Sequence record: OR352955.1
Length of the DNA: 64,000 nucleotides
Reading direction: 5' to 3' (one strand)
From: Escherichia phage AV125
Shown: piece after piece, positions 40,342 to 44,709 of the stretch
Numbering within the stretch: position 1 is the stretch's first letter
Layout of the letters: each line of letters opens with the position of its first letter
The notes under the pieces: model-generated
Database searches by the model: none
What the model saw: only the letters and a program-made list of their open reading frames with translations
What the model was told of the DNA's origin: nothing
Translations under genes and position numbers: made by a program

Positions 40342-40533
40342 TTAATCTTCCTCCAGATCAATTTCATTATAGCAATGTATGCAGTAGCCATCGTTGTGCA
40401 TATGCTGTTCATAAGACATATCTTTACCACAAGACCAACAACGAATATCACCATCGTCCCATTCACGTTCTTCTTCGCCTTCAAATGCATCTGGTAGGTA
40501 AGGCATACCAAGACAATCTAAATCGTAATGCAT
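40342..40533 (-). CDS. Small zinc-ribbon-like protein
   Basis: Track ORF trimmed to the ATG at 40533 preceded by AGGAGG; the upstream part of the track ORF overlaps the polymerase 3' end and terminator. Cys pairs CWSCG...CIHC. Confidence 0.35.
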   Translation of the reverse strand: MHYDLDCLGMPYLPDAFEGEEEREWDDGDIRCWSCGKDMSYEQHMHNDGYCIHCYNEIDLEED

Positions 40534-40546
40534 ATCTCCTCCTATA

Positions 40547-40564
40547 AAGGGGCAGAAGCCCCTT
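40547..40564 (-). terminator. Terminator hairpin after DNA polymerase gene
   Basis: Perfect stem AAGGGGC / GCCCCTT with loop AGAA, between the polymerase stop and the next RBS. Confidence 0.45.
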
Positions 40565-40582
40565 ATAAAACAATATGTTAGA

Positions 40583-43500
40583 TCAATGACAGGATGCCCA
40601 GGAATTACCCACATCATATCCGGCAGTAAGCTGAACGTTAAGATTGTAAAATTCTCCAGCCTTAGTAACAGCTAAAGCAGCAAGTTCACCTGCCCGACTA
40701 TAGGCTGTAAACCATCCACCTTTGGGAGATTCATGAATGTTAGCCCAAATTTGCCCTGTCTCTTTTTCCTTATTATGCTTCCATTCTTCGACTTTAGCAA
40801 GACATTCTTTATCAATTTTCTTTTGTTCTTCAGGATCGTCTACTTTCTTCCAACCTAATGATTCAGGTGAAAACCATTTGAATTCTACAAGGTTACGAGA
40901 AACTTCAAGCTGGGCTTCATCGTGGTATGCAATCATTTGTTGCACGAAGTCTTTATTCTTCCAGTCATCTTTAAAGAAGTCAACACTTAGCCCTTCTTCT
41001 TCGATCATGTCGTCATAAATAACCATTGCACGTTTAGCACAGATAACCCCACCACTTTGGAACAGAGAGTTAAGAATCGCGTGAGCAGAACGAGTAGGAA
41101 CCTTACGACCGTCAATACCCAAAACATACTGTTTACCAGTCTTAACCCAGAAATCGTTTAAACGTTCTTTAAGACGCGCCAGTGGGAATGCAGCTTCCCA
41201 GAAAGCATCGAACACCAGTTGCCCTGTGTATTTATCGCTACCAATTGTTTTAGCAACCTTGTCTGCTTGTGCACCATAAGTGATCCCGTATTTAACAGAT
41301 TTCGCCGGACTACGTTCAAACTTACGCCCAATAGTATCTGTAATACGTTTTGCCATCATGGTATGAACATCGTTAGGCTTCTCTAACAAGAGAGCGTTAC
41401 AGTATTCATGAGGCTCCGGTTCGTAGCGCCAACAGTTTCCTGTGATGGTAATGCAGTCTTTCTGACGCATGACCCACGTACCAAGTTCTGTTTGTGGACA
41501 CCAAACATCCTCTACACCCCACTCTTCAATAGTCAAACTTTGAACAGGAATGTGAGAGCGGTTAGTCAATGTTGCCACTTTTACTTTCTGCTCTTTTGTA
41601 TTGAAAGCTACAGAGATATTGCCTCCATGCACCAGGTACGAGGCAGTTAAAGCTGCTTCAAAAAGTTCACCTGGGTTCTGCGCCCAACGCCAAACAGGTT
41701 TTTGTTTATGTTCATGCCAGTAACCATCTGCAATCAAGAAACCTTCCAAGAAAGCTACACGCTCGGCATGAGACATATTAACTACACGCTCTACCCACGG
41801 AACATCCCATTTACCTTGTTGAACAGAAGTTAAACTATTTACCTGATCTTGTTCCATGTTAAATGGAGCATTACAAATAATATTATCTCCTGTGCAAAGA
41901 TCGGCAGTTGTTCTGACTTTAGGCACATAAGTATTCCCTTTACTACGGGTATTAACATACCAACGGTGATCTGCTGTTGCACGGTAAGTGTGTGATTTCC
42001 CTTTAATCTCAAACGTCTTACTATTTTTATAGAAGACCTTACCTTTTACTTTAGTCCATTCTTTCATACCTGTTTCAGCATTGTACCCTAAAATCTCATC
42101 CCCTTCCTTCAGGTCGTGATATCCTACCCAACCTTTACGAGTCAAAGCTTGAGCATCCATCGGCACACAGTAATGCGACTCAATCTTTGCTTCCAAAGAG
42201 TCGAAGTCATAACCGATCTGGAAGTATTTAGGAACCTCTACACCAAACAAGTTACGCATCTCCCATCCAAACAAAGATGTGACACGAGGAATATTAGCTA
42301 CAGACCTATGCTTCATACGAGAGGTTGCAGCATCACATGTAGCTGCTGGGGTAGGAATACGACCATCCGCCCTTACTGCGGCTAAGAAACCTTTATCGTA
42401 TTCTTGATCTTCTTCGTCTTCTTCCCAATCGGCACCACCACCTAAAATAGAGTTCCTACGGTGTTTATACGTTAAGTATTCTACAATCTGTGTAGCATAA
42501 GGAAATTTCTCACCCAAAGCTTGCAGGTTAGGACAAATTTCTTTTTCCTGACCTTTGGTAAAACATGGGTTAGTCAATACTTTAAGACCGCGACCTTTAC
42601 CTTTTGCTATACGCTCTTGAATCTTCCTTTCCAAGGTTTCCGGTGTGCACTCCAGATGATCACAACGATCCTGACAAAAATTAGAAGATAGAGTTTGCTC
42701 AACGTAAGCTCGAATACCTTTCTGAAGTTCTTCCTCGCTCTTTTTAATCTTGGTGCCAGATTTAAGAGTCAAGTCTTTATCTTTATATTCAGACGGTACC
42801 CAACCTAACCCTACAAGCCAGTTTTTAATATGGGTTGTATCGTTCAATGTTGCAGGGATATTAGGATCACACAAAGGCTCATCTGCTGCAACTGGCAGTT
42901 TCCACTCTTTCCCCAACATAACTAACCACCAATCTCCATCCCTCTCTTCCAAATGACCATCATGTTTCTTAGCAAAATTGATCATATGGTTAGTTGGCTC
43001 TAAGTTCTTTTTAATTTGCAACTTAGGTGGAATAAAAGCCTTAAGATAGCCTTTTGTTGCTGGTTTAGGTGGCAAAATAGGCTCAACGAGTAAACGAAGA
43101 CGCTCCATTTCTGCATCCAAAAAAGCAAGGTTCTCTTCTGCTTGCTTCATGTTAAAAGCAAATCCACGGTGTTCCTGGCGTGTAATAATGTCTGCTACAC
43201 GTTGTTCAAGTTCAAATGGACCTTCCCATTTATCATAATCACCCCACTCTTCCATAAGGTAATTATATACGCTTGTATTAGCTTTGTTGTCATAGATACA
43301 GTAATAAAGCATATCCGCAGCAAAAGTCTTAAATCGATCTTCTTCTGGAATCTCTTTACGGAAATCTATTTTTACATCACCACCTGCTTTTCGAGAAAGT
43401 GCTGCCAAGCTATGTCCTGATTTGCCCTCAATCTTTCGATCTGGGTTTAACACTTTACTCAAAATCAAGGAGTCAATAAGTTTTACCTTATTTTTGCCCC

Positions 43501-43915
43501 ACGTATTATATTTAACACTGTAATCTAATCCATAAAACAGTTTTGTAGCCAACCAGTCGTAGTTGATACCGTTGTGAGCCACAGCCATTTCAACCAGATA
43601 TTCAGGCTTGTCTTCAAAATAACCTTCATGATTAATAAAGTCTGGGAAATCTTTTAGTTGAAAATGCGTGTAATCTTGCGCCACATACTCTTTAAGAACA
43701 TATGTGTATTTACCATCTGACTCTTCATAAGGACGCCCATCAAAGATGTATTTAGGGCCATCGTGGAAAGCTACTATTTCTCCTGTTTCATGGTTCTCTA
43801 AGACAATACAGTGCATTTGAAATGTGTCTTTGAGACGATAAGGACTAGCTAAATAATCAATAGTGTCATTATTCAACAATCCGTTTGCTTCAATATCCCA
43901 TGTAAACTTACTCAC
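40583..43915 (-). CDS. Family A DNA polymerase with 3'-5' exonuclease domain, interrupted by an intein-like insertion
   Basis: Exo I motif DIEANGL; polymerase motif A DFDSLEAKI, motif B RSPAKSVKYGITYG, motif C YHDEAQLEV; about 245 extra residues between motifs A and B; GTG start overlapping the upstream stop. Confidence 0.75.
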   Translation of the reverse strand: MSKFTWDIEANGLLNNDTIDYLASPYRLKDTFQMHCIVLENHETGEIVAFHDGPKYIFDGRPYEESDGKYTYVLKEYVAQDYTHFQLKDFPDFINHEGYFEDKPEYLVEMAVAHNGINYDWLATKLFYGLDYSVKYNTWGKNKVKLIDSLILSKVLNPDRKIEGKSGHSLAALSRKAGGDVKIDFRKEIPEEDRFKTFAADMLYYCIYDNKANTSVYNYLMEEWGDYDKWEGPFELEQRVADIITRQEHRGFAFNMKQAEENLAFLDAEMERLRLLVEPILPPKPATKGYLKAFIPPKLQIKKNLEPTNHMINFAKKHDGHLEERDGDWWLVMLGKEWKLPVAADEPLCDPNIPATLNDTTHIKNWLVGLGWVPSEYKDKDLTLKSGTKIKKSEEELQKGIRAYVEQTLSSNFCQDRCDHLECTPETLERKIQERIAKGKGRGLKVLTNPCFTKGQEKEICPNLQALGEKFPYATQIVEYLTYKHRRNSILGGGADWEEDEEDQEYDKGFLAAVRADGRIPTPAATCDAATSRMKHRSVANIPRVTSLFGWEMRNLFGVEVPKYFQIGYDFDSLEAKIESHYCVPMDAQALTRKGWVGYHDLKEGDEILGYNAETGMKEWTKVKGKVFYKNSKTFEIKGKSHTYRATADHRWYVNTRSKGNTYVPKVRTTADLCTGDNIICNAPFNMEQDQVNSLTSVQQGKWDVPWVERVVNMSHAERVAFLEGFLIADGYWHEHKQKPVWRWAQNPGELFEAALTASYLVHGGNISVAFNTKEQKVKVATLTNRSHIPVQSLTIEEWGVEDVWCPQTELGTWVMRQKDCITITGNCWRYEPEPHEYCNALLLEKPNDVHTMMAKRITDTIGRKFERSPAKSVKYGITYGAQADKVAKTIGSDKYTGQLVFDAFWEAAFPLARLKERLNDFWVKTGKQYVLGIDGRKVPTRSAHAILNSLFQSGGVICAKRAMVIYDDMIEEEGLSVDFFKDDWKNKDFVQQMIAYHDEAQLEVSRNLVEFKWFSPESLGWKKVDDPEEQKKIDKECLAKVEEWKHNKEKETGQIWANIHESPKGGWFTAYSRAGELAALAVTKAGEFYNLNVQLTAGYDVGNSWASCH
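41435..42169 (-). other. Intein-like insertion (Hint domain with a single LAGLIDADG-like motif) within the DNA polymerase
   Basis: Begins with Cys583 right after motif A (ESHY|CVPMDAQ); TxxH block (TADH); LAGLIDADG-like AFLEGFLIADGYW (nt 41723-41752); ends ...ITGN followed by Cys828 as +1 nucleophile. Other family A polymerases have about 30 residues here. Confidence 0.5.
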
Positions 43916-44709
43916 TATTCCTCCTTTCTAATGTTCTCCAGAACCCACTGAAGTTCTTTTAAACTTAAACTTCTTACTCCCGCAGTTTTACTAGCTTCAG
44001 CTTTAAGTAACGGGTAAGCCTCAATGATACGCGTTTTAAGATCAGAAGTCAAGGCTTTTAAAAAATAGGTAGATGCTTCAGATAAAGAATCTTCTTCTGA
44101 TAACACTTTACCTGCACTTGCTCCCGCTCTCCTAACGGCTATATCGTAGTCTTTACTGTTACCTAATACGAATAGTCGATTCTCTCCTAAAACAACGGGA
44201 GAACGCTTCTCGTTGCGTTTAATCCATATCTGGAATACACAAGGAACATCCCAAGGTTCTCCATGAAGAATAAAAGATCCTTTTGGACATTCTTCTTCGT
44301 AAAGAAGATGCATATGGGGATTTAGTTTGTGTGCAAAAAAGATTTTTTGAAATGTGCGAGGCAAGATAAAACAAATACCACCTTCGTTATCCAGCATTTC
44401 AGCACAATGGTTAAAGAATTTAATGGCAAGACTAGCATTTTTTCCAAATGGAGGATTACCGACAAAAGCAGTTACACTACCAACAGACTCAACAGATTGA
44501 GCTAAAAAATCTGCCTCAATACAATCTTCAAACTTAGGGTCAATATCAAAAGAAGTTATGTTTTTAAAACAAGAAGAGAAAGCTCCTTCTCCCGCAGATG
44601 GTTCTACGTAGTTAGCTTCCTCTCCAAAAATTTCTTTGATCTTATCACATAAGAACCCCGCATAAGCGGGGTTAGTGTAATATTGATCAAGTGTGTTCAA
44701 CTTGCTCAA
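43915..44709 (-). CDS. N6-adenine DNA methyltransferase (gamma-class motif order; orphan)
   Basis: Motifs DQYYTNPAYAGFL, EPSAGEGAF (AdoMet-binding) and VGNPPFGK (NPPF catalytic motif); no adjacent restriction endonuclease; stop overlaps the polymerase start. Confidence 0.5.
   Translation of the reverse strand: MSKLNTLDQYYTNPAYAGFLCDKIKEIFGEEANYVEPSAGEGAFSSCFKNITSFDIDPKFEDCIEADFLAQSVESVGSVTAFVGNPPFGKNASLAIKFFNHCAEMLDNEGGICFILPRTFQKIFFAHKLNPHMHLLYEEECPKGSFILHGEPWDVPCVFQIWIKRNEKRSPVVLGENRLFVLGNSKDYDIAVRRAGASAGKVLSEEDSLSEASTYFLKALTSDLKTRIIEAYPLLKAEASKTAGVRSLSLKELQWVLENIRKEE

Follow-up and report, generated by a model that had tools for sequence, protein, structure and literature searches.

The family A DNA polymerase gene of Escherichia phage AV125, in the 64,000-nucleotide stretch of record OR352955.1 analysed here (the window), is interrupted in frame by 245 codons that encode an intein. 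An intein-less allele fixes its boundaries to the residue, its splicing residues are conserved throughout a large family of relatives, it is under purifying selection, and its occurrence and divergence show a pattern of lateral transfer. We put the probability that this is a real, probably active and mobile intein at about 90%. We infer splicing because the catalytic residues are invariant and the insert sits in the polymerase core; the splicing route and the nuclease activity considered below are likewise read from the sequence and from models built on it.

An earlier reading of the letters and translations, made without database searches (the sequence-only reading), had described an intein-like element of about 245 extra residues between polymerase motifs A and B, which starts with Cys, contains a TxxH block and ends in Gly-Asn directly before another Cys. 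All landmarks were re-translated, and the segment 41435-42169 proved exact: the insert runs in frame from CVPMDAQ to CITITGN, its TxxH block is TADH (aa 647-650), and Cys828 follows (CWRYEP). The frame stays open across both junctions, with no stops. The collinear polymerase of phage phAPEC8 (JX561091, 865 aa) lacks exactly these 245 residues and keeps the Cys (ESHY/CWRYEPEP, where the slash marks the junction), so that the segment is not a native polymerase domain. The empty phAPEC8 site reads TCACACTAC/TGTTGGCGG at the DNA level, also written ATTGAATCACACTAC/TGTTGGCGGTACGAG. The core of the sequence-only reading, an intein with a LAGLIDADG-type domain placed inside a family A polymerase, is supported. 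One detail needs correcting: once the insert is subtracted, motifs A and B are 44 residues apart, the same as in the phAPEC8 enzyme, and not about 30. The insertion point lies four residues beyond the motif A string. This is the catalytic core, and the polymerase hence requires removal of the insert. GC content (0.41-0.44 in the insert, ~0.38-0.44 in the flanks) revealed no informative anomaly of composition, and a six-frame search of the window with the family profile found no other intein of the same family.

The host gene was identified from both sides of the insert. The 1110-aa product matches Pfam DNA_pol_A (E = 1.3e-11), and the PHROG DNA polymerase families align to aa 2-585 and 844-1110, flanking the insert. 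AV125 is a phage of the phAPEC8/phi92 type. At the DNA level, its polymerase gene is 98.8% identical to that of phage vB_EcoM-Ro121c4YLVW, and identities of 96.7-98.8% were found with E. coli myoviruses resembling phAPEC8, members of the Stephanstirmvirinae (among them Ro121c4YLVW, ESCO5, ZCKP1 and anhysbys). Part of the near-identical gene matches cover 100% of it, and the rest cover exactly 78%, in two pieces amounting to 2598 nt (3333 minus 735).

The predicted structure was then compared with solved ones. An AlphaFold2 (AF2) model of the intein, built on 29 relatives, reached a mean predicted local distance difference test score (pLDDT) of 93.8 and a predicted template modelling score (pTM) of 0.90. 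All 50 matches listed by Foldseek against the PDB were inteins or other domains of the HINT superfamily, with TliVMA first (E = 3e-8), followed by PI-SceI, PhoVMA and PI-PfuI among the matches listed. For the ZCKP1 precursor, an independently made model is available in BFVD, and the two superpose with a TM-score of 0.99. The segment is thus confidently predicted to fold as a HINT domain carrying one LAGLIDADG half-domain. The sequence-only reading had named two grounds for giving the element up, a segment conserved as a native domain in homologous polymerases and the lack of a Hint-fold prediction, and both are excluded. Single-sequence matches of the intein to PDB entries were weak and nearly all to inteins, while the family profile reached the solved inteins Spl DnaX (7.8e-6), AceL NrdHF (4e-5) and NrdJ-1 (1.7e-4). 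Some relatives match Pfam Hint or Intein_splicing at up to 1.8e-6.

To place the intein in a family, an exhaustive phmmer search was run against 1.84 billion cluster representatives. The 2222 matches with E ≤ 1e-3 include 807 with E ≤ 1e-10 and 77 with E ≤ 1e-30; among the top 150, the majority span the whole 245 residues over 228-263 residues. Conservation was measured in an alignment of 119 full-length representatives with mutual identity below 50%, and the termini were surveyed in 205 proteins (196 N-termini and 209 C-termini) drawn from the best 150 representative matches and 59 word-indexed matches. With block positions numbered according to Tori et al. 2010 (PMC2807308), C1, T65 (B:7), H68 (B:10), Q164, C224, T243 and N245 are invariant in all 119 relatives, and W70, G149 and G244 are each present in 118. 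The +1 residue is Ser in 53, Cys in 37 and Thr in 29, and thus always one of these three. Every N-terminus surveyed begins with Cys, every C-terminus ends in [T/L][G/S]N, and the Cys of a 'VWC' string is found in all 209. The relatives mostly interrupt family A polymerases, at several sites, but also a portal protein and unknown proteins. In a sample of 161 family elements that is biased towards the architecture of the query, 120 are 228-270 aa long, 37 are larger (271-374 aa, apart from one 625-aa entry that is an evident chaining artefact) and four are mini-inteins.

This conservation also bears on the state of the AV125 copy. The sequence-only reading had correctly noted the single LAGLIDADG-like motif and the penultimate Gly826, and had concluded that the element might be reduced or degenerate. 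The data do not support that hedge: the Gly-Asn end and the single motif are near-invariant in ~120-200 relatives, and the segment is under strong purifying selection, its ratio of non-synonymous to synonymous substitution (omega) being ~0.03-0.04. Since both features are near-invariant across the relatives, we read them as traits of the family and not as decay of this copy.

Some relatives have arrangements of their own. The metagenomic proteins P0027 (288-545 and 567-809) and P0039 (294-552 and 574-801) each contain two family inteins, 21 residues apart, in the context ...SFQGGEK...GHYHKFD[YH]/C..., within a host protein that has only weak helix-turn-helix matches. In the second copy of P0039, Arg replaces the LAGLIDADG acid (GRG). 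Many family members (P0002-P0005, P0090, P0159 and others) interrupt a small uncharacterised phage protein at FDVYP/.../SAYANGW, and some of them carry PF19846. In P0006, which has the same host protein, the half-domain is deleted, leaving a mini-intein of 163 aa, a natural loss of the central domain.

The comparison with phages that carry or lack the intein suggests that it is mobile. At this site, ~34 phage records have the intein and 82 are uninterrupted, and carriers and non-carriers are interleaved when arranged by polymerase identity. A comparison between genera is possible with phage PaulScherrer (Bas60), from a sister genus within the Stephanstirmvirinae, which harbors the same element at the same site (ESHY/C...GN/CWRYE; 245 aa, 96.7% amino acid identity). 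Its intein DNA is 91.4% identical to that of the window, against 72.7% for the N-extein and 77.9% for the C-extein, so that the host polymerase DNA is only 73-78% identical; identity in the C-extein declines with distance from the intein. Synonymous divergence (dS) is 0.47 in the intein and 2.1-2.4 in the C-extein, and the overall omega of the intein is 0.03, indicating purifying selection.

The intein-less phAPEC8 gene gives the complementary comparison. The N-extein is collinear with it at 98.2% DNA identity, and the C-extein is 95.2% identical. By 150-nt windows, identity is 87% in the downstream flank and 97-100% elsewhere, and the flank mismatches (Table 1) all fall where the protein sequence is identical. 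A sporadic distribution, an intein younger than its host gene and mismatch clusters at both junctions were all found, and the element looks mobile. Such a pattern of lateral transfer is classically associated with a recent homing event that co-converted the flanks.

The central domain is the candidate for the nuclease that such homing would need. By DSSP on the AF2 model, it consists of the LAGLIDADG helix (134-148), strands 149-154 and 157-164, a helix (168-180) and strands 185-189 and 197-201. There is thus one motif and one alpha-beta-beta-alpha-beta-beta unit per chain, as in I-CreI-type enzymes and not as in two-motif single-chain nucleases. The motif helix ends in an acid, the putative catalytic D730 (intein D148), which is Asp in 106 and Glu in 11 of the 119 relatives (117/119 acidic) and is followed by the Gly (G149) found in 118. 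Position 3 of the helix, a packing position, is Gly, Ser or Ala in all 119, which lends indirect support to dimerisation through the LAGLIDADG helices, and Q746 (intein Q164) is invariant. This Gln stands at the end of the second strand, and we take it to correspond to Q47 of I-CreI. Between the window and PaulScherrer or phi92, the central domain has 18 synonymous and three non-synonymous changes (omega 0.038), as in the splicing domain; it is under equally strong purifying selection and is not drifting. As a test of adaptation to the target site, the ratio of between-site to within-site divergence was uninformative, the central domain giving 1.27 and the HINT domain 1.24. An AlphaFold model of the natural two-intein tandem (P0027, 288-809) had a pLDDT of 77 and a pTM of 0.50 and did not predict the relative orientation of the two inteins.

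In phages nieznany (MN850598; L003, 2501-3472), ukendt, AV126 and phiWec187, motif B of this polymerase holds a second, related intein. It shares the host gene and the CVP...TNDHMW...VFC...LTGN/C signature with the window intein and is 32% identical to it, but it is 324 aa long, has two motifs (FLGWLLSDG and LEAFWMADG) and lies 50 codons downstream (KSVKYG/.../CTYGAQ). The window intein aligns to the second LAGLIDADG unit of the nieznany intein, without ~80 residues of the first subdomain. Phages of the nieznany type have Thr instead of Cys at the +1 position of the window intein and no intein there. The +1 Cys of the motif B intein replaces an Ile of intein-less alleles, and none of the records examined annotates this intein.

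Several points weigh against reading the element as an active, mobile intein. Pfam Intein_splicing matches it only at E = 0.0033 (17.7 bits, below the cut-off of 35.8) and LAGLIDADG_3 only at E = 0.15, and scans of NCBIfam and PHROGs with the intein gave no match. Intein nucleases normally have two LAGLIDADG motifs per chain, and the solved nuclease-bearing inteins among the fold matches have 366-537 residues, compared with 245 here, and align over only 222-228. No clear dyad symmetry was found at the empty phAPEC8 site, where the best score of 6/11 is about chance for the best of 80 centres; this counts against a homodimer, for which a preference for symmetric sites might be expected. The mismatch clusters in the flanks could also be explained by ordinary recombination mosaicism. 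Finally, the penultimate His (G:6) is absent and replaced by Gly826, as it is by Gly in 118 of 119 relatives. This last feature is no sign of inactivity, since two inteins without this His splice: the Bethlehem gp51 intein also has a penultimate Gly and is active, a Gly-to-His change having impaired its splicing (PMC5050341), and the AceL NrdHF intein splices within minutes (PMC7891396).

The main rival reading is that the intein splices while its nuclease is dead. The central domain would then be what remained once the first LAGLIDADG subdomain had been lost, kept only because the HINT domain has come to depend on it for folding, and the intein would spread or persist by ordinary phage recombination. 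The two-motif relative in the same gene, which has the ~80-residue subdomain that the window intein lacks, speaks for such a history, as do the larger size class (37 of the 161 elements, artefact included) and the non-palindromic target; a mutualism between a HINT domain and a degenerate nuclease is also on record for the MjaTFIIB intein (PMC6801210). On the other hand, a structural remnant would have no reason to keep the acid, the Gln and the small residue at helix position 3 in relatives below 50% identity, and an intein that is sporadic and far younger than the divergence of its host genes fits active homing better than passive persistence. We regard a dead nuclease as a substantial possibility, one that we nevertheless do not favor. 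The most likely role of the half-domain would be that of a homing nuclease in which two intein molecules build the usual two-helix active site, as two chains do in I-CreI, at about even odds.

The splicing residues raise a separate question, that of the intein class. The intein has the attributes of class 1, namely Cys at position 1, the Thr...His pair of block B, and a terminal Asn followed by Cys+1. It also has the complete Trp-Cys-Thr (WCT) triplet of class 3, with W652, C806 and T825 present in 118, 119 and 119 of the 119 relatives, respectively. The F:4 Cys, in DVWCPQTE, lies 21 residues ahead of the terminal Asn, and the same spacing is found in the class 3 DnaB inteins MP-Be (C320/N341), Msm (C118/N139), Mle and Mch (C124/N145). 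HMMER aligns the family Trp (W70) with M70 of AceL NrdHF, at the B:12 position (N3:12 in the AceL NrdHF paper). Class 3 inteins are, however, defined by the absence of the N-terminal nucleophile (PMC2807308, PMC7891396, PMC5222942), which is invariant here, and the window copy has Cys at +1 instead of the Ser or Thr of class 3. We therefore classify the intein formally as class 1 with a Cys at F:4. Because Cys1 is never lost across the family, the pathway initiated by Cys1 is most likely the one used, and W652, C806 and T825 probably lie between the two splice junctions, where they would form an active-site or relay element or substitute for the usual F:4 Asp.

The triplet could instead point to a class-3-like or hybrid route, in which Cys806 would accept the N-extein, directly or by way of Cys1, to give a branched thioester at block F before transfer to Cys+1, and Cys1 would be dispensable or regulatory, for instance in redox control. 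The full triplet at its defining positions and with class 3 spacing would fit this, as would the Ser or Thr found at +1 in two thirds of the family (82/119). Three of 37 WCT inteins had an N-terminal Ser or Cys in the 2010 survey by Tori et al. (PMC2807308), and a derivation of class 3 inteins from a phage class 1 intein was proposed by Tori and Perler, as cited in PMC3196547; a convergent origin is the opposing view (PMC7664689). Against this route, the retention of Cys1 in 196 of 196 elements argues that it is necessary, and no family member without it, that is, no true class 3 form, was found among these N-termini from the best 150 representatives and the 59 word-indexed matches. Moreover, Cys at F:4 is on record for class 1 inteins of polyphyletic origin (PMC3196547), and the classical DnaB class 3 inteins are absent from the sequence matches of the family profile. 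We consider such a route unlikely.

Taken with the Cys1-initiated pathway, the element would work as follows. The polymerase would be translated as a 127.6-kDa precursor, in which the 245-residue insert would fold as a HINT domain and excise itself, ligating Tyr582 to Cys828. The ligated polymerase, of the same type as that of phAPEC8, would have a mass of 99.7 kDa and the released intein one of 28 kDa. Going by the residues present, an N-S acyl shift at Cys1, helped by T647 and H650 of block B, would most likely come first. The N-extein would then pass to Cys+1 (C828), Asn827 would cyclise with no His at the penultimate position, and an S-N shift would re-form the peptide bond. During mixed infection, the putative nuclease would cut intein-less polymerase alleles, and repair would copy the intein together with some flanking DNA. 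A bolder version, in which the clade splices by a two-Cys relay (Cys1 to Cys F:4 to +1) or keeps the state of a phage progenitor of class 3, and in which two inteins must pair for the nuclease to be active, seems doubtful to us; if true, it would provide the first homodimeric intein homing endonuclease.

Two further explanations can be set aside. That the segment is never excised, or is an accessory domain native to this lineage of polymerases, would fit the names 'DNA polymerase I' and 'hypothetical protein' given to the 1110-aa product in most GenBank records. The native domain is ruled out by the intein-less alleles, and a permanent insertion is highly improbable given phages that are near-identical in the exteins (98%) and lack exactly this segment, a complete set of invariant splicing residues within a HINT fold, a catalytic core interrupted four residues after the motif A string, and relatives inserted in unrelated hosts such as a portal protein and at other sites of family A polymerases. 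A cleaving-only bacterial-intein-like (BIL) domain, one of which occurs among the sequence and fold matches, or an intron whose nuclease reading frame is misread as protein, is hardly credible either, as BIL domains lack the +1 nucleophile that is Cys here and always Cys, Ser or Thr in the family, the frame is uninterrupted through both junctions, and excision at the protein level restores every residue of the phAPEC8 sequence.

As a kind and as an instance, this intein is already known from public records; what is unusual is the signature of its family. GenBank names the PaulScherrer product (MZ501100, bas60_0044) 'intein-containing DNA polymerase precursor' and marks 245 codons of it as an 'intein' mat_peptide, and the matching gene of phage SD2 (PQ821640) carries the same name. 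The BASEL authors located inteins by comparative genomics (PMC8594841). The PaulScherrer feature (L001, 2504-3238) is displaced by one codon and runs from Val2 to Cys+1 instead of from Cys1 to Asn245; the ambiguity is unavoidable, because Cys flanks both ends. We place the canonical boundaries at Cys1 and Asn245, as the sequence-only reading had done. Among the ~34 carrier records, only those of PaulScherrer and SD2 mention an intein, and the 1104-1110-aa precursor is otherwise mostly called 'DNA polymerase I', 'putative DNA polymerase/3'-5' exonuclease domain' or 'hypothetical protein'. A 2024 paper stated that inteins had never been reported in coliphages (PMC11162368). Our result is hence chiefly a correction of annotation, the intein being missed by most carrier records, by the Pfam threshold, by NCBIfam and by PHROGs.

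Characterised systems offer both likenesses and differences. The class 1 inteins PI-SceI, TliVMA/PhoVMA, PI-PfuI and PI-PkoII have two LAGLIDADG subdomains and extra DNA-recognition regions, and they usually terminate in His-Asn and have an Asp at F:4, whereas the window intein has one subdomain, Gly-Asn, Cys at F:4, Trp at B:12 and Thr at G:5. The class 3 inteins (mycobacteriophage Bethlehem DnaB, Msm/Mch DnaB1 and AceL NrdHF) lack the N-terminal nucleophile that is invariant in the window family and reside in P-loop helicases or terminases, unlike the family A polymerases that mostly host this family; the Cys+1 of the window copy is rare among them. The intein of Bethlehem gp51, a recombination directionality factor (RDF), has the penultimate Gly in common with it, but interrupts another host protein, has no demonstrated relationship and is reported to contain a conventional endonuclease domain (PMC5050341). 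The homodimeric single-motif enzymes I-CreI, I-MsoI and I-CeuI are free-standing or intron-encoded and have near-palindromic sites, while the half-domain described here is embedded in a HINT domain, its site is not visibly symmetric and its dimer is putative.

In the literature searched, neither this polymerase intein nor any intein nuclease with a single motif was found described, and we found no account, at the family level, of the combination of Cys1, WCT and TGN, of a prevalent single half-domain or of near-invisibility to curated libraries. The family is huge and very uniform, and may represent a clade of phage inteins missed by curated libraries, most of the close relatives sampled having one half-domain and an intact active-site signature. 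Whether class 3 arose by divergence from a phage class 1 intein (PMC3196547) or by convergence (PMC7664689) is debated, and a family with both Cys1 and the class 3 WCT residues is the sort of intermediate to which that debate appeals. A compact, His-less intein of 245 residues from a phage of mesophilic E. coli, with a half-sized LAGLIDADG module, could also be of interest for protein engineering.

Table 1 Features of the intein and of its host gene in the AV125 window.
Feature	Position	Strand	Remarks
Family A DNA polymerase precursor gene	40583..43915	-	1110 aa, 127.6 kDa, GTG start
N-extein, aa 1-582	42170..43915	-	Exonuclease region and polymerase motif A, terminus ...AKIESHY
Motif A, DFDSLEAKI, aa 570-578	42182-42208	-	
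Upstream flank	42173..42212	-	Cluster of 6 mismatches to phAPEC8, ≤ 45 nt from the junction (gene positions 1704-1743)
Intein, aa 583-827 (C583...N827)	41435..42169	-	245 aa, 735 nt, 28.0 kDa; HINT splicing domain (predicted) split by one LAGLIDADG half-domain
Cys1 (C583), block A N-terminal nucleophile	42167..42169	-	Cys in 196/196 family N-termini
Block B core, TADHRW	41960..41977	-	T647 (B:7), H650 (B:10), W652 (B:12); T and H in 119/119, W in 118/119
Single LAGLIDADG half-domain, intein residues ~118-212	41534..41818	-	Predicted alpha-beta-beta-alpha-beta-beta unit
LAGLIDADG-like motif, AFLEGFLIADGYW, aa 721-733	41717-41755	-	
Block F, DVWCPQTELGTWVMRQ	41462..41509	-	Cys806 (intein C224, codon 41498-41500) at F:4
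Block G, CITITGN, and Cys+1	41432..41455	-	T825 (G:5), G826 (G:6), N827 (G:7), C828 (+1)
C-extein, aa 828-1110 and stop	40583..41434	-	Starts CWRYEPEP; motif B, remaining palm and thumb regions
Downstream flank, co-conversion-like	41218..41426	-	~29 mismatches in ~210 nt to phAPEC8, synonymous-enriched (gene positions 2490-2698)
Motif B, RSPAKSVKYGITYG, aa 868-881	41273-41314	-	

Among the records aligned to the polymerase gene, an apparent third 'insert', of 733 nt, in vB_EcoM_01 (PP129558, 'partial genome') was rejected: it is an N run of ~730 nt in a partial assembly, starting ~80 nt downstream of the intein site and splitting the gene call, and it mimics an insertion in BLAST coverage.

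ARAGORN found no tRNA genes in the whole 64-kb window. Upstream of the polymerase gene, a 264-aa gene (43915-44709, minus strand) ends on the first base of the polymerase GTG start, and its counterpart is labelled putative DNA N6-adenine methyltransferase in several phage records, including that of phAPEC8. The 1-nt overlap of stop and start suggests that the methyltransferase and polymerase genes are translationally coupled. Downstream, a 91-aa Cys/His-rich open reading frame (40342-40617, minus strand) contains CWSCGKDMSYEQHMHNDGYCIHC, and its longest form overlaps the final 35 nt of the polymerase gene. Its true start is probably internal, since the phAPEC8 record has a 63-codon gene ~50 nt downstream of the polymerase gene, and its product is possibly a small zinc-binding protein.

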